Below are positions 1-47,581 of a stretch of DNA of 62,485 bases, piece by piece. A model generated the notes under the pieces. That model was not told the DNA's origin and did not search any database. It saw nothing but the letters and a program-made list of their open reading frames with translations. The position numbers and the translations under genes were made by a program. The DNA is taken from positions 1-62,485 of IMG/VR virus record IMGVR_UViG_3300047157_000104; one strand, given 5' to 3'. The DNA is from a virus (Duplodnaviria > Caudoviricetes). How positions within the stretch are numbered: the first letter of the stretch is position 1; each line of letters opens with the position of its first letter.

Positions 1-3000
1 TATTTCTTTTTTTATTATCTTGCTAACAACTTTTATTATGTCTTGTTCTTCGTTTTTAACATTGACATCCCAGGTTCTCCAGCCAAGCGCTAGAGCTAGT
101 CTTTGGTATGATGTATTTCTGCTATCAAAGGCTTCGTTGATAGATTTAACCTCTGACAGCAGTCTATCTAAAGGTAAGTTAGCCGCTGCTGAAGATATAT
201 TAGCTATTATTTCATAGTTTGGTGAAGGGTTAAATTTTCCATCTATAGTTAAACCATAACCCATTTCGTCTATAGCAGCTTGATTAAACTTCTTAGTTTG
301 TATTGCTGAATAAACTTTTCTAAGTTTAGATCCTATTGGTGGAGATATATTAGCTAGTTCAAGCATAGTATAGGTTTGATCACCTCCTCCATATCTTTCT
401 TGTGCTTTTTTATCCTCTTTTTGATAACGCATAATAGCGTTTTTCAATGTAGATACAACTGCACCTGCAAGACCACTGCCTCTTAATATTGTATCAACCA
501 TGCTATTAGCGGTTCTTATTGCTTTATCTTCAAGCTTAGCATCATCTTCTTCTTCGTCATCAAAACCAGGTATCAATGCAAACAATGCTGACTGTAAAGA
601 AGAGAATATTAAGTTCTGTACAAAGCCATAGTAAGCTATTTTACTTAAGTTCTCTACGTCGCTACCTCTTCTGTTTATTATATCTTTACCAGCTTTTTTC
701 ATTAACCTTGTGTACTGCATAGGTGTGTTTTGGAAAGCTAATATTAAACGACCTAAGTGACTAGACTGTTGTTGAGATATAAGCATTGGATCACCAGACT
801 GCTGCGTCTCGTCTGATATTCTACCGAAGTCTTCAAATGCTTTTGCTTCAGCTTCTTTCTTTGAAAGACCCTGCTTTTCGTATTTCTTAGTTCTGTTTAT
901 TAAGAATGTAGCACCACCAGTCGCAATAGCAAAACTATCCGCTATTTGTGTTGGTGTAAAACCTATTTTAAGTAAGTACGAAACTACTGCAGACGCCTTG
1001 TCTTTAGAGTTTCTAGCTTGGTTAGCGATCTCAGACTCTTGTATATCTGATTTTAAACCACCACGTCTTTCTTTTAACTTATCAGAGTTAAATATCTCAG
1101 TCCATTTTTTCCAATATAAAGGCTGATTAGCAAACGCAGCAGCTGCCTTAGCAGGGTTATTGTCACTCCAATTTATAAAGTTAGTGAATGATAACATCTG
1201 AAGCAACGCTGATCTTCTATTAAAGAACATTATTGTGCCTACAGAATTGTTAACCCAGTTTAACCATTTTTGTTCTATCTTACCAGCTGATCTTGGCGTG
1301 TTGCTACCAGACTTCATTCTACGTATTGAATCTTGTAAAGCGTCTACATAATTAGTGCCGTATATTGCCTCTAACTTGTTTAATGTTGTTTCGTTGAACA
1401 TTTCATCAACGTTCTCAATGAACTCAGCTAGATACTCTTTTCTGTTAACGTTATCTGTTATGTCATTAAGATCTTTTAGTATACTACCAACATCCCCAAT
1501 GCTCTTTTGGATTAACCCAATTATCTTTTTTAGATTACAGCCATTAAACCTTCTGCAAAACCTACTAGGTCTGGATCTTTAGCGACTAGCTTGCTTTAGT
1601 TTGTTTTGATCTCTCTTGGATATGTTGGGTATATCAAAACCTTGCTGATCCCATAAATAAACTCTTACAGCTTGGTCAGTGGTAAAGTCTGTGTCACCTA
1701 TTTTTTTAGGTAATTGTTTTTTAAGACCAAACATATCCAGCAAGTTTTTGTAGTCGTTTTTCAATGCTTGAGTAGCACCTTCCATGGCGGCAATACCTCT
1801 AGTGTAAGGTAGTATTAAGTTTTGGTCGAACAGTCTTTGATCAGCCTCACCTTGCTTACCTTTTCCTTGCTAACGTGTAAGATGTTAAACCTTTAAAGTC
1901 TTCAGCCGAGTATGGAACAAAGAACTTAAACTTACCTTTCTTAGCACCTTTCTTTCTAGCTAATACTTTAGAGTAAGTAGTTTCAGCTCTAACACCTTTG
2001 TTGCGCTCAATCATTTTGTTTAGATCAGAAGACATGCTACGCTTACGATTAGCTATAGCTTGTTGAACTTTACTATTAACATCGAAAGTCTCTAAAACAT
2101 CTTTAACCGCTTGAACATTTTTAATTGCATCATCAACAAAGTAAAAGTCGTTAAAACCTTCAGCAACTTTACCAACCATCCAATCAGCTTTCGCTTGCGC
2201 AGTGCTGTTTGCTAGCCCCTGTAATATTAGGCGCGCGGAATATCTATACCCAAACCTTTCATAAACGCGTGTATAGCACTTTCCGAAGCGACTGGTCTAG
2301 CGGTTAGAATAAATATATTGTTATTACCAAATTTATCTATTGCTTTTTGTATTCTTGGAATTAGTGGTCCGGGCTGACCTTTAACCACTTTGTTAAATTC
2401 ACTAAAATCAAACTCAGCTCCTTCAGCTAATAATGTTTCACCTTGTTTAGCGAACTGCGCTGCATTTATTTTAAATGTTTTATCATCTTTTTTGACTATG
2501 ATCTGGCTCTTACTAAACGCTAACGTGTCGTCAAAGTCATATACGCTTATGCCCTTTGGATTTTCAGAGTAAGATCTTTTGCGTGCGTTATTTAAAGCTT
2601 TCTGTTGAATCTTATTTTTATTAGCTTTTGCTATTGCTCCTACTTGCAAATTAGAATTAAACTTAACCCAGCCTTCACCAAATATTTCGCCAACATTTTC
2701 ACCGCCAAGTTTTTCTAAAGCAAATATGTTTTTTCCACCTAGTGTTCCTTTGTTATAATACCTGTAAGTTTGGTGGAGCTGACCTAATATGTAATTTATA
2801 GGCATAGTAGACTTAAACTGAACATTTATATTCTTGTCCATAATCTTAGGTACGATGCCTACGGTGTAAGATTCCTTTAATGCATCTAAGTCTACTTTTT
2901 TGTTCCAAAAATGATTAGTAAGTTCAATCATCATATGGTTAGTTGGCACCATATGCTCGTAGACTAGCTCTCCTTTGTAATCTCCTACAAAATAATACTC

Positions 3001-6000
3001 TACATTAGCTGCAGCTTTTAGCATGGTTTTCATATTGCTATCTAAGCTTTTCATAGTAGAGACCCAAAGCAGAGGATCATTTTTGCTTTTAATAAAAGTC
3101 AAGTAATCTATCATGAAATCAAAAGCTGCGTCTGCTTCTTTTTTTCTATAATCAAAATCTTCTATAAATTCTGCCTTAGTGCCTTTAACAGTTTGACTCG
3201 GCTGTTTAACTTTTTCATTAAAACTTTCAATAGCTTTTCCATTATATTTAACGCTTGTTATTTTTAATTTACCACCCTCCGGTATTGTATATGTTATTTC
3301 TATATTAGAGTGTGTGTTGAAAACGTTGTCTATAAGATCCTTTAGACCAGAAAAATATTGCGCTCTTTTTCCACCAACAACATAAGCGGTTGCGGTGTGA
3401 CCTTTCATAAACTTAAATGCGTTTATAAAACCAGACTCACCTCCTTCATCTATTAATTTATGAGTATACTCTTGCGTTGTAGCTCTATTGGCTTCTTGCA
3501 CACCACGATCATCAGATATATTAACAAATTTTCCATCAAAAACTTCATCGAAAGTTTCAGCGAAGCCGGTTATGTTTGCAATATTTTTTTCTCCAGAAGC
3601 TTTTATTTCCTTCTGGTCTATGTGGTTTTTAATGAATCTTGTTAAATCTAGTTGCGTACCAATAGTTTCCCTACTGTCAACGTACTTTTTTAATGAAGCA
3701 GCGTATTCTTTTGCAATTTCTTTTAATTTAGATTCTTCAATACCTTTGTCTTTATAGCCATTTATTATGATTTTTTTAGCACTAGCTTCTGTGAATTTCA
3801 AACCCATCTCTAGCGCTCTAATCTCTTTCATTATTGGACCAACATTTTTACTGTCCACTAATACACTTCGCTCAGCTGCATTAAGAGATATAGATCTTTT
3901 AACGCTACCTCGCTCTGCTTGCTTGCTGAACTCTTGAATATAGTTGTCGAAAAGCTGAGCTCCTAATCTACTTTGATTATCTTTAAAAGCTTCAACTATT
4001 TCACTATTAGGATTTTTAAACTCTTCATTATACACGTCAAAAGCATACTCTTCAGCTAGCGCTTTAGCTAACGCTTCTTTCCTGCCTCTAATAACCTCAT
4101 CGCCTTTAAACATGTAAGTTAAAAACTGCTCATCAGTAATTTTATTAGCAGCGTTAGGTAATCTTCTAACTAGCTGTGCACCTGAAGTTCTACCTGCTTT
4201 GTCAGTACCAACGCTTTCGCGATCTATTTTCTTACCTTCCCAATCAGAAGTGAACTTACCATCAACAGACTTTTGAATAGCAAAAGGCATACCTTGCATA
4301 AGCCAAGTTGTAGTCATGTTTTCAAGTATAGGTTTCTTAAGCTTTAAGAAGTTGTTTCTAAGTTCACCACCACGTTTAGCTCCTAGCATTTTCTTAAACT
4401 CAATATCCGCTTGCTTACCTATTTCTTTTTTAATCTCAGACATTAAAGGCGTAACAGTCTTGTTTATAGACGTTGCAGCGTCGATGCGAGATTTAAGTGT
4501 TTTAGTTATGAGTAGTATCTTGTCTTGTACTTTCGCAACCATTTCGTTTGGTAACACTCTGCTTTCAACTAAGTTCTTATATTCAACCCTTGGAGCTTCT
4601 GTGGTTGTAGTTTCAGCTGCGGGCTCTGCGACTTGTCTAGCTTCTTCTGTGTCTAAGCTTTCAGCTTGTCTTTCAGATTCTATAGCTAATCTTTTCTTAG
4701 CATCTAGCTTACTAAATCTAGCGTTAGCAAACAAAAACTCACCAAAAGTTATAGGATCTCCACTAGCAGTTTTTCTAATAGCTGCTGGATCAAAGTTAAT
4801 TAATCTATCAACAACTCCTTCTAGCGTTATTTCTGCTTCCTCTTTAGACAGTGCTCTAGAGTTAACGTAGTTGTATATAGCTCCGCCTGGTTGAGTTGCG
4901 TTAAATATAGGGTTAAATACTTCTCTACTTTGAAACTCTTCTTTAGTACTAACATTTTTAGGCACTAAGTTGTTTATGTTTTCTAGCAGACTTAAAGATC
5001 TTTTTTCACTTTTATCCTTTTTAAAATCTTTTAAACCTCTTCTTGCTTTCGCAGTTAACTTACCTTTACTTATAGCTTTTTCGTAATCTAATACAAAATC
5101 AAATACTTCTTGGCCAGAGTTAAATTTAAGTTTATCTGCATTAACACCTAGTTTTACAGCTAGTGTTTCAAGAATTTCTTTACCTATCTGAAGCCAAGTT
5201 TTTTCACCAAGTTCGTCGAACTTTATTTCTCCTTCTGATACCAAAGAGAAAAATTGCGTTATCCATTCGTCTGAATCAACGTTATCTATATCTAAGCCTC
5301 CAAATTCTTTTATTTTAACTTGTATTTCAGCCTCTGAAAGTCCTTCATCTTGCCCTTCTCTTCTTATTTCATCAGCTTTATCCCGGTAAACTTTCATCCT
5401 ATCGTCGACTTTGCTAAAAACTCCTTTATTTTTAAGCACTTGTTTAAAGTCGTCGACAACTTTTTTAACGCGTGGGTCTAGTTCTCCGTCTTTACTAGTG
5501 AACTCTTGAGATATTATTTGGTGTAAAAGCTCGTGCGAAGGTGCAGATATGTCAAAATTAGCAACTGCTGCGCTTAAGTTTACGTATATTTTACCTTCTT
5601 TAGATTTAAATAAAGCGTTGCCTATGTCTTCTTTAGTTACGTTATTATTTTTAAAATCTTGATCGTTTCTTAGTACAATTGTTTCACCTATGCCTAGCTT
5701 TTTTTGTATTTTACCTACTGTACTAGCATCTTTTTCAATACGTTCGACAGCTACTTCTTCCCTAGCTCTTTCTACTATATCTTTAAGTTCTAAGTTTATT
5801 TTTGCTATCTTATCTAAATCATGACCACTCTCGTGTAACTCTTCTTTCTTTTTTAATTCTTGCTGAAGTTCTGAGTATTTTTGAGACCACTCGATCATTA
5901 GATCTGGAGTTAAACCCATAAACGAAGGTGCTTTTTTCAAGCCTAGCCCTACAGCTGTAGCTTGTTCCATAATATCATCTGCAACTTCTTGAGATATTGT

Positions 6001-8295
6001 TCCTTTGCTAACGGCAACAGCTAGCATTCTTTTAGACTTTTCTGGATTTAACGAAACTTCATATAAATTTCTAAGTCTAGCATGAGGATCTGATTTAAAT
6101 CCAGGTATTCTAAGACCACCACTAGTTAAAGATCCTATAGAAAAAGAAAGCACACTTGTTCCAATGAAGTCATCAACAGAATAATCTGCTTTTAGAAGCT
6201 CCATACCTGCTTCATTATTTATGCTTCTATTGATAACAAAGTTTTCTGCTCTTTGTTGTATATCTTCTTGACCAAACTCTTTAAATCCTTCGTTAAAAAC
6301 TCTTATTGCAGATCTTTTGGTAGGTATTAGTTTTTTTATAGAGTTACCTAAAGATTCATTAAAAACTTTTTTTGATCCAGTTTTTACATAACTTTTTAAA
6401 GCATCATTAATAACACTTTTTCCTAACAACCAATCGTCTAGTTTGTTAATCATAGGAAGTTTAGGATTTATTGGGCCAGTAAGCGTATATAATACACCTA
6501 GCTGAAGCGACGCGCTATTAGCTAGCTTTTCAGCTTCCGAATCAGTTAGACCTGCTCTTTTAGCCTCTAAAAGTGTGCTATTATAACCTTTAAATGCTCC
6601 CTGAATACCTTGAGCAAACGCAGCATCTATGTATCTAGCGTCCATAGGTAGCTTTACTCCAAATGTCCCCGCGTTTTTAACTTTAGGCATATAAGCTAAT
6701 TTTTGAAAGTTTTTAAATTGAGCTACGTTTTTAAACCCATTAGCCTTAGCCAAAGCTTTTGTAGATGCGGCAAGCCTTGCGCCAGTAACACCTTTTGTTC
6801 CTAGTATTTGAAAAGCTACATCACCTAACACGGCGCCTGCAAAGTTAGAAAAACCTCTCAAACTAAAGTCAAAATCATCTACGCCTTCTTTATCTATTTT
6901 ATCTAATATTTTTTGCTTTTCTTCGTCGCTTATAGATTCGCCTATAGTTAAACCAGTAGTAGTATTGTAAAGTGTTCCATTGTCATCTTTCAAATAATTT
7001 ACACCATTATAGTCTACAGATTTGCCGCTAACATTCATGTATTGTAGTTTATTCTTAGCATCTTTATATTGCTCCGCCATCTGTATTAGACGTTTTTGCT
7101 CGTTTACTTTTGTACTTATAGGCGTTGGAAAAATGTCATTCAACCACATTGTAAGCTCTTTTGCGCCAGATACAAACATTGCTCCACCTTCATATGCAGT
7201 TTCGCCTAAGCCTCTAATAGCTCCTTCAGCATTACTCTGCTTGCTTCTTTTGTCCATTAATAAAGCTTGGTCTTTATCAAGTTGACTTGCTGCCTTGCTA
7301 AGATTAGGTAAAGCTTTTGTTTGATATTCAGTGTAAGCATCTAAGTTAAAAGTCGTAAATTTTCCACCTTTTTCTTTTATAAAACTACTATATGCTTCAT
7401 CAAAAGTTTCAAAGTCTTTATATTTATTTTTGTTATAATTGTATTCTTCTATAAAAGCTTTTTTGTTAGCTTTTTCATCTATGTCATTTAAATATATATC
7501 TAAATACGTAGACAAAAGCATTTCTTTACTTAATAGTAAGTTTTCTCTTTTTCCTTGCTCTACAGACTTTTCATCAAAAGTACCTCTATTTATTTTTTTA
7601 CTAAAATCTTCTGTTAGTCCTTTTTTGTTTAATAACCCTTGAAAATCGTCTATATTGACATTCATTTTCTCAAGCAGTTCTGCATCATAATGTGTGTCTA
7701 CAAAAGATGTATTTTTTTGAGGATTATAATATATATTTGTTTTATCTAAATCTATATTTAAATCGTTTAGCTCGTATTGTTTTTCAATTTGAAAATCTAA
7801 ATCTAGCTCGTCGTAGGTTTCTATTCTACCAGATTCAACCCACTTTTGGTAGTCTTTCCAAGTTTCATCATTATCAAATTTATCTTTACTAGCTTCGCCA
7901 ATAACATAGCCATCTTGAGTAGGTATTACATTTGAATCTCTACTAGCATAAAACTCAGCTTGTCTAAACTCATTTATTCTCTTATCTCTATCTTCTTCAT
8001 AAATTTCTTCAAACTCTTCCAACTCTATAGACTTAGGTTTTGTAGTTCTTATTTCAGCGACTCTAACGTCTTCTCTTATTTTAGCCATGTCTACGTCGGA
8101 CTTTAGCTTTATTTCTTCAACATCTGATCCGAACTGCATGTCAGAAGGTTTTGCAGCAGTAGGATTTTCTCTTGCAACTATTTTAAGATCTTCTTCTTTA
8201 ACTAGCTTTGCATTAGGATATCTTTCAAAAAAAACAATTTGGTCTTCTAAACTTAGAGAGTCTACATTAACTATTCCGTCTTCTGTTTCAAACAT
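1..8295 (-). CDS. Giant virion ejection/polyvalent protein with zincin and HAD phosphatase motifs; frameshifted and open at the left window edge
   Basis: 2022-aa ORF 2227..8295 contains HELLH and VYDFDDTL/ILTARP. HAD motif IV (FVDDA) is in the next fragment 1856..2179. Reading continues via 1579..1785 and an open frame from about 1500 to 1 (WVNNSVGTIMFFN...LAFQNTPMQY). Confidence 0.75.
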
Positions 8296-13169: not shown

Positions 13170-16100
13170 TTATTCTATTATTATTTCTATTTGGTTACCT
13201 GCAGCTCCTGTTATTGCACTTATATATCCTAAGCCTTGAACTGAGTATTCTTTAGTGTCTAAATTTGCAGAAGTAGTTTCAGTTCCTAGTATATTATAAA
13301 ACCACTTACCTTCTTTATTTTTAAATGTTTTTATCTGTCCACTCTGAAGATCAGATTCTATTGAATCAACCCACCATCCACTTTTAGCTAATCTATTTTC
13401 AAACTTATTGTCTGTGTCTGGGTTGTTGCTTGCGTCTGGATTATCTAAAAATACCCTAGCTTGAGATCCTTCATAGTTTAACGTTTTAAACGATTTAACA
13501 CTACCAGGCGCATCGTTAAATATGAACTTAACAGAAGACTCATATTGAGCTCCGTAAAAGTTATTTCTAGTTTCATTGGTGTGAGACCATATCTCACCGT
13601 TTTTAAAAGTGTAATATGTATTGTTTAACGACAAGCCGTTTTCTTGTATATAGCTTTTTCTTGAGTTCCAACCGTTTACATCTTCTTTGAAAGTAACAGT
13701 ATCGTCGTACGTACTTCTTTTAGTAGAATTTGTAAATGTTAAAGCATATTCTTTTTTATTCTCATCGTAACTACCTATAGCTTGTTCTGCGTCTGCTAGT
13801 TTGTCTCTAAAATAATCTTCTAACCCATACCTTGATATTGGCTCTAATCCATTACCAGAAAGCCTTAATATTACACCTCTGTTTTTATCAGAAAAATAAG
13901 CTCTGTTTCCGTACCTGGCGTACGACTCTGGATTAGTGCTTATACCAAAGTCTCCAGCGTAAGGCTGTGCAGATCCCAACACATTAGTGCTTGAAACTAC
14001 GTTTTTACTACCGTCTGCGTTAAACAATGCGTCCTTGTTAGATAATATACTAATTATATTATCTTCTAAGTAAACATCTAGCTTACCTAATCTAAACTGC
14101 ATAAGCTGTATAGATCCGTAGGCTGGATTTATGGCTTTTGTTATTTGCTCTGCTTGTATAAACTGATTTAATCTATTAATACTAGAAGTCGAATTATATA
14201 TACCAGAAAATATTATGTCAGACTTCTTACGAACTTCTTTGTATTGTTCTTCAAGAACTGTTGACGCTCTGACACCCTTACCTATTGTAGGAGCATTGAA
14301 ATCATCTCTTATTCTGTCTGACTCAACACCGTTGCCAAAGCTATAGCAATTACTATAGAATAATCTTTGAGTAGATCCGTGCGCAGCTTTTTCGTATGCA
14401 TCGCTAGCTTCATAATATATATCTAGCTCTGCCACTTCTTTTGGTTCTGTTTCAAAAACAGCTGGGTTTTCAGAGGTGAACCCTTCATCTTCAAAAAAAG
14501 TTTGTAGTATTTCAAGACCAGAAACAAGTTGGGTTTCCACTTCAGTTTGCCCAAGGATATTTCTATATATCTTTGTGTTGTCTTTTGGAGACCAAACAAT
14601 AGGTTTGTCTAGTTTTAGAGTCCATCTTATAACTCTTTCAGTTGCCCATATTCCTCTTTTATCGCGATCTCTTTTACCATTAAACTTCTTTTTACCATTG
14701 TTATATGCTATAGCATGTGTTCTAGCAAAAGACTTTATTGTGTACACGTTTTCGTCTTTACTAGGATCATCTGTAAATCTAAATTTTGTACCAATTGTTT
14801 CTAGGCTTCTAACAAATCCCCTAAATTCAGTATTTATATTGCCTCGTCCAAAGTTGCTCCAGTTGTCCAACCCTTCTTTAAAATTATCTGCACCAGAACC
14901 AAAGTTATTAAATGCAATTTCTATAATATCCCCACCTGAATCAATACCCCACCCTGGAGAGTTTTGCCTTAATCCACCAGGAAAAGATTGAGTTCTTTCA
15001 CCAACAAGCGGTCCATACGATGCAAGGTGCTCGTCGTACCAATGATAATCCCAATACCATCTTGACTTAAAACCTGTCCAAAAATGGCCATCTTTTCTCT
15101 TTAAATCTCCTGCAGCAATAGTAGGTATATTTTGTGTTATTCTAAGCTCACTGTCTGACTGTGCTAATAAAATAGCTTCGTCCAGTATAGAGTCTCTTTG
15201 TATTTTAGCGAAAAATCTGCCTTGAAACTCTGGCTTTGCTTTAGTAACTTTTTGAAAAATTTCTATAAAAAGCTTTTCCTCTGAAGCACTGTAAGGCTCT
15301 ATAAACGCAACATCTTCAGAATCTAACCTTTTTTCTAGATTTACTCTGTACGCTTGCTCTGGTACTTCTGAAAGATACTGTATATTTGCAATTTCGTATT
15401 TTTTAGTTTTATTGTTCTCATCAGATATAACCAATACTAAATCATTTAATTGATGCACAGGTGTAGCTGATAATATTTCACTACCAGTTCCTCCATATAT
15501 CCTAACCCAGTCTCCGTACTTTATATCTATATAGCTGCCAGACGAAAGAGGATATCCACTTAAAGAGTGAAATATACTACCGGAACCAGCCCCTACCAGA
15601 GACCTTTTTAATGTACCTTTGGAAACTAATTCTTGTTTTATAAAATCAGGAGCTTCGTTGTCTATAGCTAAAACTTTGTATTTTGCTTCATTAGAAACAA
15701 ATTTATCAGTGTCGTGCTCTTTTTTTAATGTTATAAAAGAGTCATCTTGCAGCTTGTTTCTTTCTGATGAAGGAAACGCTATCCAAGTGTTGCCATCTTC
15801 AGCCGGATAATGTCTATCCATAGCCAAATTATAGTATGGCTGAGACACTTCTCTTATATAGTACTTAAATGTATCTACCCAATCTGGAATTGGGCTAGTA
15901 ATCCTAACTCTAAAATGATTTCTACTTACAGCGTAGCCTTTATTAAGAGCCATTGATCCAGTGGTGTCTGTTAACACAGGTGTCTCTCTGCCGTACTTGT
16001 CTCTATATACTACGCCTACTTGATATGTTCTTTGTGATTTTACAGAAGGTATCGCGTTAGTAGTAGAGTACTCGGCACTAGTAGTAGTAAACGCAAACTT

Positions 16101-17572
16101 TACTGTTATTTCTTTACCTTCGCTAGATATGTCGTAATTCTCTACATAGTTACCAAACATCAACCTATTACCAGAGACAGACAGTGCTTTTGCTCTTTTA
16201 GGAACGTTGTCATATGGCCTAAGTATTTGGTTAGATGGTAGTACTTTGTATATTAATTCAGAATCTATGTTAATTCTGCCTGTGTACGGATCTATAAAGG
16301 CTCCGGAGTCTGTAAACTCATCATCAGTTGTCTTTATGCTTTTTACCACATATATGTTATTAGAAACAGAATCTTTATAAAGTATGTCTACTTCTACTAC
16401 GTTGTACGGTACGTTGGCTGCCCAGTCTCTAATCTCTAGTTTTCTTAGCTGATTAACCATGCCTAGGTTATAACCTTTTTTAGGGTTATAGTCAAATTCA
16501 TCTCCTATAAACGCAACCTGGCTAAAAGGCGATATAGTAGAATATTCGCCGTCTTTATACTTATATCTATAAGCAAATCTGACAAATTTTGTTTCAAAAA
16601 GAGCTGGCTTTTGTATTAATTCAACTTTCCAGTTTCTTACATTTTCTTGAATGTTAGAATCTACAGCGTCTATACTTATTTTAAATATTTTTGGATAAGC
16701 TTTAAAAGCTTGCTCTACCGATGCCACAACAAAAACATCATCATTAGCCTCTTCTCCTTGGTCATCAAGTAGAGTTATTTTAAGTTTATCTCCTTCTTTA
16801 AAGTCTGGTATAGAACCAGAAAATATAACTTCGCTATTCACAGGATTAGCTAAAGGTCTATTTAAAGCAGAGTCTGCAACATTGTCACCGTTTTGATTAG
16901 TATATGCTCCAACAGGTACAGCTTCAAAATCACCATCGTCATTTTGAAACGTAAATGACTTACCAATTGAAGTAGTTAGATATAGGACCTTCTCTAGTTG
17001 TTTTACTCATTTTTAACGTAGGAGCTACTTTTGGTCCTTCTTTTATAACAGTACAATGCTTTTCTTCAAAGTTCAGCCACCAACTTGCGTGTGCGTCCAT
17101 GCATTGTTAGTGTACCTTTCCAATCAGTTATTTTTATAATTTTTGGCTCTGATTTGTCGTCAGTCCAAATTAAAAAATCATCTAATATTTCTACGCCAGT
17201 TATTAAGTTCTTTCTACTAAAATTAAAACTCTTTTAGTGTCTACTAATATTGGAGTTGCAGTGTTAGTTGCAATTGATTATATTCTATTACTAAGCTTTT
17301 AGTTTGACTAACAGCAAACCAATATATACATTCAGTTTCATCTCTTCTTATAGATCCTATACAAATAGCATTAATACCTAAATTAGAAGCTATACTAGCA
17401 GCATATGGTAGCTTATTACCTAGTATATTTTGTAAAGCACCTACATCAGCACCTTCAGATGTAGACACTTGAACGTTTAGTGCGTCTCTATATTGACCGT
17501 TAGGTAACTAAGTCTCTCATCGAGGTCTTTGTTCATAGCTCCTTTGCTAAACGTTCTTTTCAATTCTGCCAT
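13170..17572 (-). CDS. Tail stabilisation/muzzle protein (crAss-like, P22 gp10-like); 5' part frameshifted
   Basis: Start MAELKRTFSKGAMNKDLDER...YRDALNVQVSTSEGADVG at 17572; 1223-aa ORF with FAYRYKY, GNRLMFGNY, GNGVESDRIRDDFNA, FGISTNPES, NKEGKWF. Confidence 0.7.
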
Positions 17573-38337: not shown

Positions 38338-38777
38338 TATCGTGTTTTGTCGTTGATCATTTTATCAATGGCTGAGTTGAATACCTTGTCTGTGTAAGAT
38401 TTGTTTTTAAAAAAAACACTACGTTCAGAAGTAGGTAAGTCTTCTTCAGCCAGCAATATTCTGTATATTCTGCTTATTAGCTGTTGGCATTTAAATGATG
38501 TCTTAAAAATGCTGTATTTGATTGTAGTGCGGTTACGGTGCCTCCATGTCTCTATCCACCCTTCTTGCCTAAGCTTATCCCACCGTTGTTTGTTCCAAGA
38601 CATAGTATATGTCCCTTCTATAAATTCTTGTCTAGTAAATCTGCCAATGCAGTCTAAAGCTATCAATAGCTCTAACTCGGCATCGGTTAGATTATAAGTT
38701 TTACAGGCCCATTTTCTAACGAGCCTGTAATACTTAAATAATTGCATTTGTTTTAAATCAGATGCAGTAACCCTCAT
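38337..38777 (-). CDS. Putative winged-helix DNA-binding protein
   Basis: NLTDAELELLIAL...WDKLRQEGWIE pattern resembles MarR-type wHTH. Confidence 0.4.
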   Translation of the reverse strand: MRVTASDLKQMQLFKYYRLVRKWACKTYNLTDAELELLIALDCIGRFTRQEFIEGTYTMSWNKQRWDKLRQEGWIETWRHRNRTTIKYSIFKTSFKCQQLISRIYRILLAEEDLPTSERSVFFKNKSYTDKVFNSAIDKMINDKTR

Positions 38778-39034
38778 TATTCTACGATTACTACGTCTTG
38801 TATTTGAATAACTTGATATATAGTGTCGTTTTTAGTTATACTGTGCCCAGCGTGCCTATCATAGTATACTATGTCTCCTTCGCTTAGCGTATCAGGTATA
38901 AGATCACCATTACTAATGATCTCTCCTTTTAAGTACCTATTTTCACTATCGATGCTGTCTGTAATATCTAACCCAGCGATTTGTTTCTTTTCTTTGATAG
39001 TCTTAACTATCATGTAATAACTAACTGCTCGCAT
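38777..39034 (-). CDS. groES: Co-chaperonin GroES
   Basis: 85 aa next to GroEL; GLDIT...KGEIISNG...EGDIVYYD...IQIQDVV. Confidence 0.8.
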   Translation of the reverse strand: MRAVSYYMIVKTIKEKKQIAGLDITDSIDSENRYLKGEIISNGDLIPDTLSEGDIVYYDRHAGHSITKNDTIYQVIQIQDVVIVE

Positions 39035-40613
39035 TTGGTATTCTTATATTAGATATTACACAATCTGCAGAAATTATAGTAGAAACAACACTCACTGCAT
39101 TTTTAAGCGCTGTCTTAGTAACTAGTAATGGATCTACAATGCCATTATCAATCATATTAACATTTTCACCAGTTATTACGTTACAACCAATACCTTTGTC
39201 ACCTTTTATTTCGTAAGCTATACCAGCATTATCTAATATAGTCTTATATGGTGCTCTTATTGCGTTGCAAAATATTTCTAAACCTGCGTTATCACTCATC
39301 TCTAAGTTTGCATGAATATTTTCAAGCTCAGAAGCCGCGTCCATTAGAGCTACACCTCCGCCAGGTACTATACCTTCTTGCAGAGCCGCCTTGACTGCAT
39401 ATATTGCATCCTCCACCCTGTCTTTTTTCTCTTTCAACTCAACTTTTGAGTTTGCTCCTACGCGCACAACACCGACAGAACCTGATAGCATAGCTAGTCT
39501 TTGCTCTAGTTTGCGCTTTATGTAGCCATTTTTCTCAGCTTTAATCTGATCTTTAACTTCTTTTATTCTACCAGCTAAGCTTTCGTCAATTGGTAGCGTA
39601 GTTATAACAGTATTTTTACTGTCTGTAACCACAAACTTGGCTTGACCAAGCGAATCTGGCTGTATTAGGTCTAAATCATCACCTAATTCTTCATTTATAA
39701 CCTCTGCACCTGTTAAAATGGCTAAATCATCTATAGTTTCTTTGCGCGTTGGCCCAAAACCTGGAGGATCTATGATATTTACGTTAATATTACCTTTTAC
39801 TTTATTCATTAAAAGTGCTGATTTGACCTGTTGCTCAACTTCAGCTACTAAAAGTAGTGGTTTTTTGTTCTTTATAACGTATTCAAGTACACTTTGTATC
39901 TTTCTAAGGTTAGGTATCTTGCTTGAAACGATCAATATAACCGGATTTTCAAGTTCACACCTGTTCTTTTCAGTATTAGTAGCAAAGTATGGTGATGTAA
40001 GCCCAGATTCTATTTGTACACCGTCAACTACATCAACGTATGTTTCATCTGTTTGTGACTCTTCCATCAAAACCACACCATTTTTGCCAACTTTTTTATA
40101 AGCCTTGGCTATTATGCTGCCAAGTTGGTTGTCATTGTTACAGCTAATAGAACTAACGTGATCTAGTGTAGAGTTTTTAACCTTAACACTCATGTTTTCT
40201 AATATTGCCGTAGCTTGAGCAAGGCCTGTGTCGATGCCATTTTTAATCTCTCGCACCGAACATGCTTTGTATTGCTCTTTATTGACCTCTTTAATAAGTG
40301 ATTCAGCAAGGACGATAGCCGTAGTGGTACCGTCACCTGCTTCTTTCACTGTATTTTTAGAGGCTTCCTTAATAAGTGTGGCACCTATGTTTTCAACCGG
40401 GTCGTGTAAGACTACGCTATCCGCAACGGTTACACCATCTTTTGTGATCACCGGTTTTCCCATGCCATCTTCATAGATGACACATTTTCCTGAAGCGCCT
40501 AAGGTTGATTTAACTGCTTTCGCTAGCTTCTCAACGCCACTTATAACTTTCGTTTTTGCATCAGTGCCAAAATCTAAATTCTTGACAATCTGACTTGGTA
40601 AATTATATTCCAT
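39021..40613 (-). CDS. groEL: Chaperonin GroEL (phage-encoded)
   Basis: AVKSTLG, ITKDGVTVA, AGDGTTTA, PGFG, KKDRVEDA, GIVPGGG, GIVDP. Confidence 0.95.
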   Translation of the reverse strand: MEYNLPSQIVKNLDFGTDAKTKVISGVEKLAKAVKSTLGASGKCVIYEDGMGKPVITKDGVTVADSVVLHDPVENIGATLIKEASKNTVKEAGDGTTTAIVLAESLIKEVNKEQYKACSVREIKNGIDTGLAQATAILENMSVKVKNSTLDHVSSISCNNDNQLGSIIAKAYKKVGKNGVVLMEESQTDETYVDVVDGVQIESGLTSPYFATNTEKNRCELENPVILIVSSKIPNLRKIQSVLEYVIKNKKPLLLVAEVEQQVKSALLMNKVKGNINVNIIDPPGFGPTRKETIDDLAILTGAEVINEELGDDLDLIQPDSLGQAKFVVTDSKNTVITTLPIDESLAGRIKEVKDQIKAEKNGYIKRKLEQRLAMLSGSVGVVRVGANSKVELKEKKDRVEDAIYAVKAALQEGIVPGGGVALMDAASELENIHANLEMSDNAGLEIFCNAIRAPYKTILDNAGIAYEIKGDKGIGCNVITGENVNMIDNGIVDPLLVTKTALKNAVSVVSTIISADCVISNIRIPNASS

Positions 40614-42264: not shown

Positions 42265-42501
42265 ATGTCAAATCAAAATTCAATCACAAGCAAACGTTTC
42301 GTAATCAGAAAATCACTAATCGGTAAAAACACTGTAATCAAAGTCGAGTTCAAAAATGGTAAAACATTTGAGTACAATCACGACAAAGCGTTCGAAGTAA
42401 TGAAAGATAAACTCGAAGCGATGAACTGCTGGGAAAAGTACAAATCATACACTTCCAGTACAAGTGTTCCAACTCCACTACGTAACGCAGAAGTTGTGTA
42501 G
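42265..42501 (+). CDS. Early hypothetical protein
   Basis: 78-aa ORF after motif copy 3. Confidence 0.65.
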   Translation: MSNQNSITSKRFVIRKSLIGKNTVIKVEFKNGKTFEYNHDKAFEVMKDKLEAMNCWEKYKSYTSSTSVPTPLRNAEVV

Positions 42502-42524
42502 TGTACACTGGAAACTCTAAATCA

Positions 42525-42569
42525 AGTTATGTTGGCACTTAAATGTGAGTTCGATTCTCACCATAACTA
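42525..42569 (+). ncRNA. tRNA minihelix-like element (acceptor stem plus T-arm, no anticodon arm)
   Basis: AGTTATG/CATAACT 7-bp stem, GTGAG-TTCGATT-CTCAC T-arm, 13-nt linker containing GG. Confidence 0.6.
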
Positions 42570-43302
42570 CTATGCAAGTAATATTAAACAACTCAAAAGA
42601 AACGATCGACTTCACTCAAGTAATACTAAAACAAATGGCTGGTGAACTAACTCGCGAGCAAGTACAAGAACTAATAAATAAAGCAAGAAATGAAAAATAA
42701 TATGAATAAAGAATTTGAAACAATACTACGCTGGAATGACAGCACAGAAACATTAGATAGACTATATCGCTACGCAGATGGAACAGAAGTTGTATTCTCT
42801 CGTGGAGTTGATAGAAGAAACGAAAATACAAAATAAATACGAATAAAGTAAGATAATATATATACAATATGAATAGAAGAATACCACACTGGAACAAAGT
42901 AGCTCACCCGTACAAACTAATGTACAAACGTAATCAAGAAACTGGTGCACTTGATATAATCAAAGCATACAACAACGATAAAGGTGAAATCACATCAATC
43001 AAAACAGTAGGTAAAGGATAATTATGCAGAAACATTCACACACAAAATTAAGTAAAGCAATGCTATACACGCAAATAGTGGCAGTATTGTCAGTAGTAAC
43101 AGCAATGGCGTTCGCCATGTACACAATAATAGTAAGATAACCATGAAGAAATCAATATTAAAAGTATTAGCAATAGTAGGATCGATCGAGTCAGTAGGTT
43201 GCTTCTTAGTAGAAGAACCAGCGATGGGTTATATCTTTGCGGTGATCGCAATACCATCAATCCTAGAATTAACTAACATGCACATTAAAGAACAAGAACA
43301 AA

Positions 43303-44307: not shown

Positions 44308-44703
44308 ATGTATAACTACAGTAGCATAAAATTCGAAGATCGCCACAAGGTGGAAGATGCTTTCGCAAAGTCAATGGAAATAATATATGGTATACAAGAA
44401 GTAACTACAACTCGCCAGCGTAGTAATGGTACAAGATCATTTCTTATGCCAACAGGCCAGCGCATCGCTTGCTACAAGTCAGGTTATGTAAGAAAAGTAT
44501 CTCCTACAAGTAGATGGTATCAACTAAACAAGAAGTACCTTAAAGAAACTAGGTGGACCGTAATGAGCAATGACGGTAGTTTATCAACTACAAGATCTAT
44601 GTGTTGGGAGCGTGAGCTAATACTAAGTCCACTTGCACGTATGAAGTATATGCTAGACTTCTACCTTAGAAATTACAAAACAAATACGAATAGTAATCGA
44701 TAA
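44308..44703 (+). CDS. Early hypothetical protein
   Basis: 131-aa ORF; its 3' end runs through motif copy 6. Confidence 0.6.
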   Translation: MYNYSSIKFEDRHKVEDAFAKSMEIIYGIQEVTTTRQRSNGTRSFLMPTGQRIACYKSGYVRKVSPTSRWYQLNKKYLKETRWTVMSNDGSLSTTRSMCWERELILSPLARMKYMLDFYLRNYKTNTNSNR

Positions 44704-44710
44704 TAATAAC

Positions 44711-44902
44711 ATGGAAAATATATTTAACGAACAAACATATCTCTTTGTACTAGACTTTGACGATGGCAAGTGCTATAGATATAGATACAACACGTCAATG
44801 GGTAAGATAGAAGACTTTATAGAGCAAGCAGGTCATAGATTAATGTTTGTAGAGTATATGTTAACAGAAAAACCAATAGTAATGTATGTAAATTATGAGT
44901 AG
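44711..44902 (+). CDS. Early hypothetical protein
   Basis: 63-aa ORF after motif copy 6. Confidence 0.55.
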   Translation: MENIFNEQTYLFVLDFDDGKCYRYRYNTSMGKIEDFIEQAGHRLMFVEYMLTEKPIVMYVNYE

Positions 44903-45289
44903 AATTATATCACCGTGGGAATTAGCCTACACAAAGTTAAAAGAACACTACAGCAAAGATCAAATAGACGATATGCTATGGTGTGAAGTTGAAGAATTAT
45001 TAATCAGAGAAGAAAGAGATGCAGAAGAAAATTGAAGACATTGCTAGCGGTGTTGCTATACACATGCAAGAGCTGCTACTAGACACGGTGGATTGGCAGA
45101 TAGACGATCTACCACACGAAAAAAGACAAGAGCTAATTAAGCTATCTGTAGAAAAACTACAAAGCTTAATAAGCTAAAGACACACCCAGCGAATAAATAA
45201 CAAACCTCGGTAAATTGAATCAAATCAAGGCAAGCGTTCCTTCCTCCGGAATTGTTTCATGAGCAAAGGTAGCAAATGACTGGGTATAT

Positions 45290-45466
45290 GGGCATAAATG
45301 GATTTTAAATAGCGATTAAAGGCGTAATCCTGACGAGGTGTAATAAGCGGCTCGATGAAGGTTTACTTATCCGTCATAGTGATGACACCCGACCAGGAGG
45401 CAATGAAGCTATGTAGGTAAGTAATAAAGCTATGGTAGGCAGGTTCGATTCCTGCCATGTCCACCA
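45290..45466 (+). ncRNA. Short tmRNA/tRNA-Ala-like structured RNA (177 nt)
   Basis: 5' GGGCATA pairs with 3' CATGTCC-A-CCA (G3:U70, A73, mismatch at pair 7); T-arm GCAGG-TTCGATT-CCTGC; unpaired TGGATT D-loop mimic; ATAGC/GCTAT helix. Confidence 0.6.
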
Positions 45467-45523
45467 TTTACAATATAAATACGATGACAGTAGGATATTA
45501 AGTATAAAATTAAATAAAAATAT

Positions 45524-45787
45524 ATGAAAAGAATTACATTATTACACAGGCTAAAGCCAGAAGTTAAAGCAGCATTAGAAAAAAACAAACTAGATTACGA
45601 TTTCTCTATCGACCTTATCTACAAAGAGTTAGATGAAGTTGTAGTGTACCAAGATCTTAAAATGTCTACTATATACTCTATATACTTATTTAGTAGCATA
45701 GATATGTATGAAGCTGATGTGTATGACATCAGGTGGGGCGGTAATTTATTCTTAGAAGATAACGATTTAACAATAGAAACATTATGA
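45524..45787 (+). CDS. Early hypothetical protein
   Basis: 87-aa ORF after motif copy 7. Confidence 0.55.
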   Translation: MKRITLLHRLKPEVKAALEKNKLDYDFSIDLIYKELDEVVVYQDLKMSTIYSIYLFSSIDMYEADVYDIRWGGNLFLEDNDLTIETL

Positions 45788-46714: not shown

Positions 46715-47117
46715 TATTAAAGAACTTGACATAGTGTATATGAACATAGCTGGTGAAATTAGCCAGCTAAGTAAATGCAAAAGAAAGAAGGTCGGTGCTA
46801 TTATAGTTAAAGATAACAATATATTATCCTTTGGTTATAACGGTACGCCTTCTGGCTTCTGCAACACTTGCGAGGAAGACGACAGGACAAAATGGTCTGT
46901 ACTACACGCAGAGTCTAACGCTATAGTTAAAGTAGCTAAATCTACCAACAGTTCAAGTGGATCTACGCTGTACTGTACGTTGTCTCCCTGTAGAGATTGC
47001 AGTAAGTTGATAATACAAGCAGGTATAATTAAGGTAGTATACAAAGAAGTTTATGAAGGATCAACCGAAGGGCTTGATCTTATGGAAGAATCAGGAATAA
47101 AAATAATAAAAATATAA
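46707..47117 (+). CDS. dCMP deaminase (ComEB family)
   Basis: KVGAIIV, GYNGTPSG, HAESNA, PCRDC zinc motifs. Confidence 0.93.
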   Translation: MPNIKELDIVYMNIAGEISQLSKCKRKKVGAIIVKDNNILSFGYNGTPSGFCNTCEEDDRTKWSVLHAESNAIVKVAKSTNSSSGSTLYCTLSPCRDCSKLIIQAGIIKVVYKEVYEGSTEGLDLMEESGIKIIKI

Positions 47118-47581
47118 TGGGTACAAGAAGTTTAACAAGAATAATACCAAGACAAGAAGGTTTGTCTTACAGTGAAGGTCATACTAGAGCTGAGTTAGCG
47201 CTAGTAAACATATATCAACAGTACGATGGTTATCCAGAGTATATGGCTGTTGAGTATGCAGAGTGGTTGAAAGATATAAAGATCATTAATGGCTTAGGCG
47301 GTAACAAAAATCTTAATGAGATAGCTAATGGAGCAGGTTGCTTTGCAGCTCAGTTCATAGCTAAATTCAAAGATCGAGCTGGTCAAATGTATCTACAAGC
47401 AATAGACAACGAGATCGGTTGGGCTGAGTATATATATACTTTATACCCTAAAGCAGATCACGACACTTATATGTCTATATATAAAGTTTCTACTAGAACT
47501 GTTATATTTGTAGGTAAGCCAGAAAAAGCTCTACAACGGTACGATGAAAATTACAAAACAAATACGAAACAAGAAGGATAA
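47117..47581 (+). CDS. Conserved phage protein (MGTRS...YDGYP type), function unknown
   Basis: 154-aa ORF; its 3' end runs through motif copy 9. Confidence 0.65.
   Translation: MGTRSLTRIIPRQEGLSYSEGHTRAELALVNIYQQYDGYPEYMAVEYAEWLKDIKIINGLGGNKNLNEIANGAGCFAAQFIAKFKDRAGQMYLQAIDNEIGWAEYIYTLYPKADHDTYMSIYKVSTRTVIFVGKPEKALQRYDENYKTNTKQEG

Follow-up and report, generated by a model that had tools for sequence, protein, structure and literature searches.

We are nearly certain that the 177-nt stretch at 45290-45466 is a true gene for a tRNA-like RNA and is under selection. The RNA belongs to a large family of 'top-half' tRNA mimics, tmRNA-like but tag-less, that has so far gone unannotated, and its structure, its conservation and covariation, the retention of an alanine identity set and the lack of a conserved coding part are established. 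Because the RNA imitates an alanine tRNA in its upper half alone, which is also the portion that tmRNA employs, and because dozens of related phages carry it, it is probably a decoy directed against the host translation machinery. By analogy, the likeliest function, to which we would give a probability of roughly 0.45, would be that of a processed, probably alanylated decoy competing with host tmRNA for SmpB, alanyl-tRNA synthetase (AlaRS) and EF-Tu.

The window, i.e. the whole stretch of DNA that was analysed, is a complete IMG/VR virus record of 62,485 bp from a phage of the Flavobacterium/Cellulophaga podophage kind. It encodes a GroEL/GroES pair, a portal protein and a large terminase, along with many proteins of nucleotide metabolism and one that contains a crAss 'muzzle' domain. 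The terminase matched 87 isolate records, from phages of Flavobacterium, Cellulophaga, Tenacibaculum or Maribacter or from unnamed ones (best match 63% identical and uncultured, the next 46%), and these matches make a Flavobacteriia host likely. None of the 87 ORFs of the window that were scanned encodes SmpB, an integrase, Ro60 (TROVE) or a tRNA-modifying protein. The window lineage of the element is made up of three genomes, namely the window, the locus L156 and one contig seen as both L155 and L120; the window-type insert occurs only in two contigs already known. The parts of the element are as follows.

45290-45466, + strand: whole tRNA-like element, 177 nt, ends set by two covariance models
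45290-45296, + strand: acceptor 5' strand GGGCATA, with G3 at 45292; both covariance-model matches start at 45290
45297-45308, + strand: D-loop-like linker AATGGATTTTAA, stemless, 12 nt, with TGG, the GG being invariant in the family
45309-45313, + strand: 5' strand ATAGC of the basal (H2-like) helix, pairing with 45429-45433; absent (deleted) in L155 and L120
45314-45364, + strand: variable insert, part 1, with a hairpin predicted at 45334-45354 (minimum free energy fold); dispensable, deleted in L155 and L120
45365-45422, + strand: variable insert, second hairpin, ACTTATC (45365-45371) with GGTAAGT (45416-45422) in the minimum free energy fold
45429-45433, + strand: 3' strand GCTAT of the basal helix, read from the sequence
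45439-45455, + strand: T-arm GCAGG / loop TTCGATT / CCTGC, exactly the family consensus
45456-45462, + strand: acceptor 3' strand CATGTCC, with T70 at 45460
45463-45466, + strand: discriminator A (45463) and encoded CCA (45464-45466); both model matches stop at 45466

The first-pass annotation had described an acceptor with G3:U70, a discriminator A, an encoded CCA, a stemless D-loop and a canonical T-arm, and each of these features is present. The acceptor strands GGGCATA/CATGTCC pair at six of seven positions, with G3 (45292) opposite T70 (45460) and an A.C mismatch at position 7:66, and the linker with TGG follows the acceptor strand without a D-stem. G12 and G13 are invariant in the alignment of relatives, where the T-loop reads TTCGAnT. 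The overall assignment, a tmRNA tRNA-like-domain layout carrying the alanine identity set, is borne out by the sequence and by the ARAGORN and Rfam results. For the proposed ATAGC/GCTAT helix the picture is mixed: its 5 bp can close the interior of about 115 nt in the window, where there is no variation to test it, and its equivalent covaries in the family, but its 5' strand is deleted in L155/L120. The window copy is not a typical member of the family: its insert is long, its CCA is encoded and its seventh pair is weakened.

ARAGORN (introns allowed) called no tRNA or tmRNA gene across the whole 62,485-bp window, and no Rfam model matched at 45290-45466 at gathering thresholds. At permissive settings the Rfam tmRNA model (RF00023) matched exactly 45290-45466, its score of 23.8 bits (E 9e-7 over 5.5 kb) lying below the 47-bit cut-off; only the tRNA-like ends were aligned, the entire middle being deleted, and there was no pseudoknot region. 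No match of the tRNA model was listed at the element, either at gathering score or at E<=10, a listing from which lower-scoring overlaps of the same clan were possibly dropped, and none of the Y RNA models matched at E<=10. Comparison with tmRNA, tRNA and Y RNA models by ARAGORN and Infernal leaves the permissive tmRNA match to the tRNA-like ends as the only one listed, and the element is neither a standard nor an intron-containing tRNA, in keeping with the first reading of it.

Ordinary tRNA-Ala genes of two Bacteroidetes genomes score 27-28 bits with RF00023, above the 23.8 bits of the window element, so the match reflects an alanine-type acceptor and T-arm and is no sign of tmRNA ancestry; real Bacteroidetes tmRNAs score 142 and 174 bits. 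Family members reach 36-38 bits with the tmRNA model and stay below the cut-off of the tRNA model, the window copy scoring lower than tRNA-Ala, and next to the inner helix the junctions do not have the sequences seen in the two Bacteroidetes tmRNAs examined. Judged from such scores and junctions, the family may descend either from a tmRNA gene or from a tRNA. A family model built without the window sequence found the window element with exact ends at 34.5 bits (E 4e-6 in 682 kb). Since the same model gives the 3' parts of host tmRNAs and one tRNA about 30 bits, not far below, the orthology of the window element also rests on its identical T-arm and on the shared downstream gene for an 87-aa protein, a family that forms the next conserved downstream gene for 20 of 32 elements, the window included. 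Among 31 element-bearing loci ARAGORN called a tag-bearing tmRNA in one (L148, a long relative). With the sole exception of that call, ARAGORN and the Rfam gathering thresholds overlooked the element in every sequence tried, and such phage genomes hold a class of small-RNA genes that is now labelled 'intergenic'.

Relatives were collected by means of the DNA ligase gene 2 kb downstream of the element, which served as an anchor for fetching 48 related IMG/VR loci. BLAST, a pairing scan and the covariance model together identified a homologous element in 31 of these; 5 of the 17 element-less loci contain no upstream DNA because the stored locus begins at the ligase gene. Most copies start with GGGCGTG-A-A/T-A-TGG and end with ACGCAGGTTCGAnTCCTGC-CACGTCC-A-CTA. 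A scan of IMG/VR with the 3' core pattern returned 90 stretches representing 81 distinct elements, and 7 further matches lie on MAG contigs, the two examined being a 1.7-kb contig and a 56-kb contig with two tandem copies. No DNA match was found in the isolate phage collection, where the ligase relatives are too distant for synteny; Flavobacterium phage elemoF gave no family-model match at E<=0.01.

Three other candidates were set aside. A gapped 'short tmRNA-like' pattern occurred in at least 118 stretches of IMG/VR, none with an acceptor 5' strand paired at 7/7 positions, and these are provisionally taken as ordinary tmRNA 3' parts with a chance TGGATT. A 16-mer from the 5' end had 53 matches, about the chance expectation by a rough estimate, and none of those loci was matched in a BLAST search with the element. 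The weak family-model match in MW202828.1 (29.6 bits) has a D-arm-like hairpin and was not counted.

The acceptor, T-stem and basal helix covary strongly, covariation being one of the checks put forward with the first reading. In a MAFFT alignment of 23 relatives, with the window lineage excluded, pairing is 100% in the acceptor, 100% in the T-stem and 76% in the first five pairs of the basal helix, compared with 41-48% in slid controls; 12 of the 17 pairs vary on both sides, and the observed score was reached by none of 500 shuffles. Among 87 distinct model-aligned sequences all five basal-helix pairs show all four Watson-Crick types. That alignment was fitted to the model with the acceptor 3' strand fixed by the search pattern, so its count of 84/87 G:U pairs is not independent. 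In an alignment-free check the median anchored helix was 5 bp, compared with 3.1 in shuffles, with p<=0.05 in 11 of 32 elements.

These observations bear on the idea that the element is a mere leftover, be it a prophage att fragment of a host tmRNA gene, a decaying tRNA-Ala or an intron-bearing tRNA. A tmRNA database paper names tmRNA genes as common phage integration sites (PMC11915505), and the A.C mismatch at 7:66 in the window copy would also suit decay. However, both acceptor strands are present and covary, no integrase is found among the scanned ORFs, the ends of Bacteroidetes tmRNAs differ in sequence, ARAGORN finds nothing even with introns allowed, short members have no anticodon arm, and 31 of the 48 loci retain the element, all of which makes a leftover extremely improbable.

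It is established that G3:U70, A73, G1:C72 and G2:C71 form the alanine identity set, and that the acceptor/T-arm stack by itself is a substrate of AlaRS. The element resembles tRNA-Ala and the alanine minihelix in these four features, and differs from tRNA-Ala in having no D-stem, anticodon arm or decoding role and in scoring below the tRNA-model cut-off. The 32 ligase-anchored elements, a set unbiased for acceptor sequence, unlike the set found with the 3' core pattern, carry G:U at position 3:70 in 27 cases, A:U in 2 and G:C in 3, and A73 in 31. The G3:U70 pair is kept across five acceptor sequences (GGGCGTG, GGGAGTG, GGGGGTG, GGGCGCG and GGGCATA), the other pairs having changed with compensation. 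Such retention of the alanine set amid compensated change is what would be expected from selection for recognition by alanyl-tRNA synthetase, whereas a bare cleavage signal would not need it.

A cleavage signal is nevertheless one possible explanation for the family. The tRNA-like fold would then serve for processing or stability only, RNase P and 3' nucleases cutting the early transcript at it and the excised RNA having no job, much as tRNAs punctuate mitochondrial transcripts. The elements do occupy various slots among the small early genes, and some are found a few bases past a stop codon or right behind another tRNA-like element; they have no promoter motif of their own, and several such kinds of element occur per genome. 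Cleavage requires shape alone, yet the acceptor sequence, the 3:70 wobble and A73 are kept between phages whose ligases are only 55-80% identical, and the true tRNA-Met genes of these phages show more variation in their acceptor stems than the element does. We therefore consider a generic processing signal unlikely.

No promoter or terminator signal rose above chance at the locus, and neither a conserved upstream motif nor a promoter at a fixed distance was found. Positions -1 and -2 before the first G are A/T-rich, and the CTA trailer is common to the element and the true tRNA-Met genes of these phages; taken with the missing promoter, these features fit excision from a longer transcript by tRNA-processing enzymes. 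After the discriminator the 32 elements have CTA in 27 cases, CAA in 4 and CCA in 1, an encoded CCA being exceptional, and the CTA trailer may be a processing signal peculiar to these phages. As a wider observation, CTA follows the discriminator in 71 of 81 distinct alanine-type elements and also in tRNA-Met genes of these phages (L120-L334). CCA is encoded in host-type Bacteroidetes tRNA-Ala genes and in one of two Bacteroidetes tmRNA genes examined.

Parts of the locus are covered by contigs from four RNA libraries (X15, 45188-45533; X17, 45376-45742; X18, 44673-45466), which are assembled sequences of relatives 90-99% identical to the window with possible DNA carry-over and were not counted as proof of expression or of RNA ends. 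The match of the X18 contig breaks off at 45466 with the CCA, where a 14-nt loose end equal to 45340-45353 follows, and the depth of this contig is 147 compared with 16 and 42 in the flanking ones. A repeat may have broken the assembly of a relative at this point, or the contig could derive from an RNA that was joined or permuted. Two conserved neighbour genes gave no sign of a partner protein for the RNA: the 154-aa product of 47117-47581 (predicted fold, pLDDT 74) and the 87-aa product of 45524-45787 (pLDDT 89) had no fold match in the PDB, with best E values of 0.026 and 1.7, respectively.

The interior of the element presents a different picture from its ends. The first reading was of a half-size tmRNA-like RNA whose insert of roughly 115 nt can pair extensively and holds a short open frame. 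Conservation of the insert as a folded or coding module is not supported: the inserts of relatives range from none to about 130 nt and are unrelated in sequence. Total length over the 81 distinct sequences runs from 47 to 185 nt without a gap in the distribution. In the shortest (47-nt) form a 15-nt linker alone separates acceptor and T-arm, with no inner helix at all, and short relatives have one irregular hairpin or none and no anticodon arm. The whole-element fold of the window copy is not unusually stable (z -1.64; 12 of 200 shuffles equally stable). Of the inner helices proposed earlier, TCCTG/CAGGA, GGTGT/ACACC and ATAAG/CTTAT, each is broken by one uncompensated substitution in L156 (element positions 108, 52 and 58), and the 5' strands of all three are deleted in L155 and L120. 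A hairpin of 45365-45371 with 45416-45422 is kept in the window, L156, L155 and L120, with one change from T.G to T-A. The short frame ending GGNEAM-stop does exist in the window, but its stop is lost in L155 and L120. With a variable interior, broken helices and a lost GGNEAM stop, the element does not amount to a half-size tmRNA carrying a message. Neither a message nor a pseudoknot domain has been conserved, and among the inner features only a helix that leaves the elbow has.

Could the window copy all the same be a working miniature tmRNA, in which the ribosome, once alanine has been transferred, resumes on a frame of the insert (...GCA ATG AAG CTA TGT AGG TAA, or the GGNEAM frame), adds a tag that does not lead to degradation, and is released by termination? 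Stop codons of all three frames cluster at 45414-45427, and a second frame, which ends ...AMKLCR-stop in the window and reads ...MTPDQ(E/Q)AMKL(CR/RG)-stop across the lineage, is open to the same TAA in all four window-lineage sequences, where there is very little variation; the tag-bearing tmRNA that ARAGORN called on L148 points in the same direction. The open AMKL frame, however, comes from three independent genomes with few substitutions, the GGNEAM frame is not closed in L155/L120, no pseudoknot region aligns to the tmRNA model, members of 47-80 nt are too short for any frame, the inserts are unrelated between relatives, and the putative tags have no hydrophobic C-terminal degron. A miniature tmRNA is thus very unlikely, and the earlier suggestion of ribosome rescue without a tag found no support.

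Near-invariant ends around a hypervariable interior might also mean that the tRNA-like part is a scaffold for the stabilisation and processing of a functional hairpin that varies, for instance an RNA that acts in antisense or binds a protein, and the movement of sequence modules in and out of the element would agree with this. Against it, the window's insert shows no more complementarity to its own phage genome than chance would give (longest direct match 13 nt, longest complementary match 12 nt, E 0.1-0.4), members without an insert exist, and the insert is partly deleted in L155/L120; we regard a scaffold role as quite unlikely. Duplex energies between insert and tmRNA, calculated for three MAG-binned copies against the tmRNA of their own MAG (two MAGs), gave z values of -1.8, +1.9 and -2.8, the host link being doubtful.

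An 11-mer, GATTAAAGGCG, and a 13-mer, CGGCTCGATGAAG, from 45314-45360 of the window recur in the same order about 130 nt upstream of, and outside, the element of L161, and for other blocks, too, it differs from phage to phage whether they belong to the element or flank it (L127, L128 and L134; L144, L148 and L151). Within this intergenic region, small structured modules appear to be reshuffled.

The window lineage departs from the family in its acceptor. The L156 element is 92% identical to that of the window, with 14 differences in 177 nt, and a 56-nt block that includes ATAGC is deleted in L155 and L120. Nine of the 14 differences fall within 19 terminal positions (Fisher p 4e-7, for a partition picked once the differences were known). 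The window and L156 differ at three acceptor pairs in a compensated manner, and in L156 G3:U70 is replaced by G:C and CCA by CAA; L155/L120 likewise have G3:C70 and a CAA tail. The presence of G3:C70 and CAA in the two nearest relatives indicates that alanine charging is not kept in the window's own sublineage; these relatives have switched or lost alanine identity with the shape preserved. The terminal clustering of differences looks like selection on, or swapping of, acceptor identity.

Among known systems, viral RNAs with tRNA-like processing but without a decoding role include the stable RNAs 'species 1 and 2' of phage T4 and the tRNA-like RNAs of the herpesvirus MHV68, whose functions are unknown or non-translational. 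The closest case concerns tmRNA. Hudson et al. 2014 (PMC4131195) describe the tmRNA of mycobacteriophage DS6A as 'little more than the TLD' and report that a DS6A-like molecule consisting only of the TLD inhibits tmRNA in E. coli, chargeable or not, perhaps via titration of SmpB; the primary paper is Mao et al. 2009. The 2025 tmRNA database paper repeats the inhibition by a molecule like that of DS6A and adds tag-less organellar forms (PMC11915505). By that description, the DS6A molecule and the present element are both phage-encoded tRNA-like domains of tmRNA layout without a tag frame; DS6A is a mycobacterial siphophage, whereas the family here belongs to marine podophages of Flavobacteriia type. 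Unlike the DS6A case, it is large, its inner helix is hypervariable (0 to about 130 nt), it mostly has no encoded CCA, and it is accompanied by non-alanine mimics. No description of the family was found in the full-text literature searched, a coverage outside which subscription journals lie, and DS6A is the single printed precedent found there and the nearest to this family.

As reviewed in PMC3968760, the tRNA-like domain of tmRNA has an acceptor for alanine only, a T-arm and a D-loop without a stem, and H2 lies where a long variable arm would otherwise be. The present element shares with bacterial one-piece tmRNA (RF00023) the G3:U70 and A73 acceptor, the T-arm, the stemless D-loop and a predicted helix that would leave the elbow like H2. 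It differs from that tmRNA in having neither pseudoknots nor a tag frame and in being much shorter, roughly half as long in the window and a quarter as long in many relatives. Tag-less tmRNAs of organelles, as listed in PMC11915505 (jakobid mitochondria and forms of about 65 bp in Mallomonadaceae plastids), likewise consist only of the tRNA-like domain with no coding part; these are the organelle's own, vertically inherited RNAs with imported SmpB, whereas the phage element is a viral extra beside the cell's full tmRNA. YrlA and other bacterial Y RNAs are described in PMC4201824 as non-coding tRNA mimics that also occur in phages, some being cut by RNase P and CCA-tailed. YrlA, by that account, keeps a D-arm, has its termini in the Ro60-binding stem and lies beside the Ro60 gene, whereas the present element has no Y RNA match and no TROVE neighbour.

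Sequestration of SmpB and EF-Tu, as put forward in the first reading, is plausible, and a decoy of this kind could work as follows. The element would form a small, stable tRNA-like RNA with a coaxial acceptor/T-arm top half and a GG loop docking on the T-loop, and with one helix of variable length and sequence in the place of tmRNA H2, without an anticodon arm or a conserved message. It would be transcribed with the rightward early genes, RNase P would cut its 5' end and 3' nucleases would trim the other end; CCA is already encoded in the window phage, and relatives with CTA would need the host CCA-adding enzyme. Because of G3:U70, A73, G1:C72 and G2:C71, the host alanyl-tRNA synthetase would be expected to charge the RNA. 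As a tmRNA-like domain without a tag template, it would most likely compete with host tmRNA for SmpB, AlaRS and EF-Tu, as the DS6A case suggests, and such competition might damp trans-translation during infection, that is, the tagging and the RNase R-linked decay of products of truncated mRNAs. Against a decoy, RF00023 prefers plain tRNA-Ala, the nearest relatives of the window have lost G3:U70, and the phage encodes no SmpB. The model of a decoy titrating SmpB also leaves the hypervariable inner helix and the non-alanine paralogues unexplained.

The same tag-less design, once an oddity of DS6A, is conserved in dozens of uncultivated marine phages with purifying selection on the alanine set. 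Should these RNAs block trans-translation, ocean phages of an abundant group would commonly interfere with ribosome rescue when they infect, and the family would offer natural, minimal ligands of SmpB or AlaRS for study.

These phages carry other top-half mimics as well, including a second tRNA-like element in the window.

42492-42572, + strand: second tRNA-like element, with acceptor AGTTGTG/CATAACT (non-alanine), T-arm GTGAG/TTCGATT/CTCAC, discriminator A and trailer CTA
L133, 5662-5711: mini top-half RNA of the 44-50-nt class
L138, 5467-5516: mini top-half RNA of the same class
L139, 5850-5893: mini top-half RNA of the same class
L264: one mini top-half RNA of 50 nt

The element at 42492-42572 has no D-stem and no anticodon arm and scores 30.3 bits with the Rfam tRNA model (cut-off 29) and 32.1 bits with the family model; its copies in L120 and L155 have a 43-nt insertion. 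In the mini RNAs a conserved 15-nt linker, CTACGGTACTAARGT, joins an acceptor stem to a T-arm, and there is nothing more. Their acceptor stems differ by compensated changes, and one is the alanine-type acceptor of the family. Further tRNA-like families occur in L120-L167, for example with the acceptors AACTAGG/TCTAGTT, GGTAATT/TATTACC, AGCTTGA/CCAAGCT and GGGTAAC/CTTATCC; there are two to four tRNA-like elements per phage, often beside a true tRNA-Met, and none of these further families was called by ARAGORN.

The non-alanine mimics suggest a function wider than the titration of SmpB. It is known that defence toxins can cut, acetylate or extend the 3' ends of tRNAs, and the elements may be decoys for some other reader of the acceptor end or elbow (a defence toxin acting on tRNA 3' ends, AlaRS or the CCA-adding enzyme), with the acceptor types covering different targets. 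The two to four mimics per phage with different acceptor stems, some only 44-50 nt long, agree with this, as do the nine terminal differences among 14 and the three compensated pairs between the window and L156 (the Fisher p of 4e-7 again applying to a post hoc partition). The idea draws on what is known of toxins that target tRNA ends, and retention of the alanine set in most members fits mimicry of tmRNA or of an AlaRS substrate more simply, so that a decoy for another factor seems improbable. More broadly, and still doubtfully, marine Flavobacteriia podophages may possess an undescribed toolkit of several top-half mimics, alanine tmRNA-like ones together with others of different acceptors, the smallest being 44-nt minihelices and the largest 185-nt forms whose inserts can be swapped. 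Compensated switching would change their acceptor identity in evolution, and the mimics would jam or evade the host's readers of the acceptor end, i.e. SmpB-tmRNA rescue, synthetases, the CCA enzyme and defence toxins that target tRNA ends. If true, this would amount to a general viral strategy, well beyond the single case of DS6A.

Elsewhere in the window, GroEL is encoded at 39021-40613 and a GroES-like protein at 38777-39034, both on the - strand. A 2022-aa ORF at 2227-8295 (- strand) has no Pfam or PHROG match and adjoins genes for large virion proteins, one with the crAss muzzle domain (13170-16841); by analogy with crAss-like phages, its product may be an enzyme packaged in the virion.
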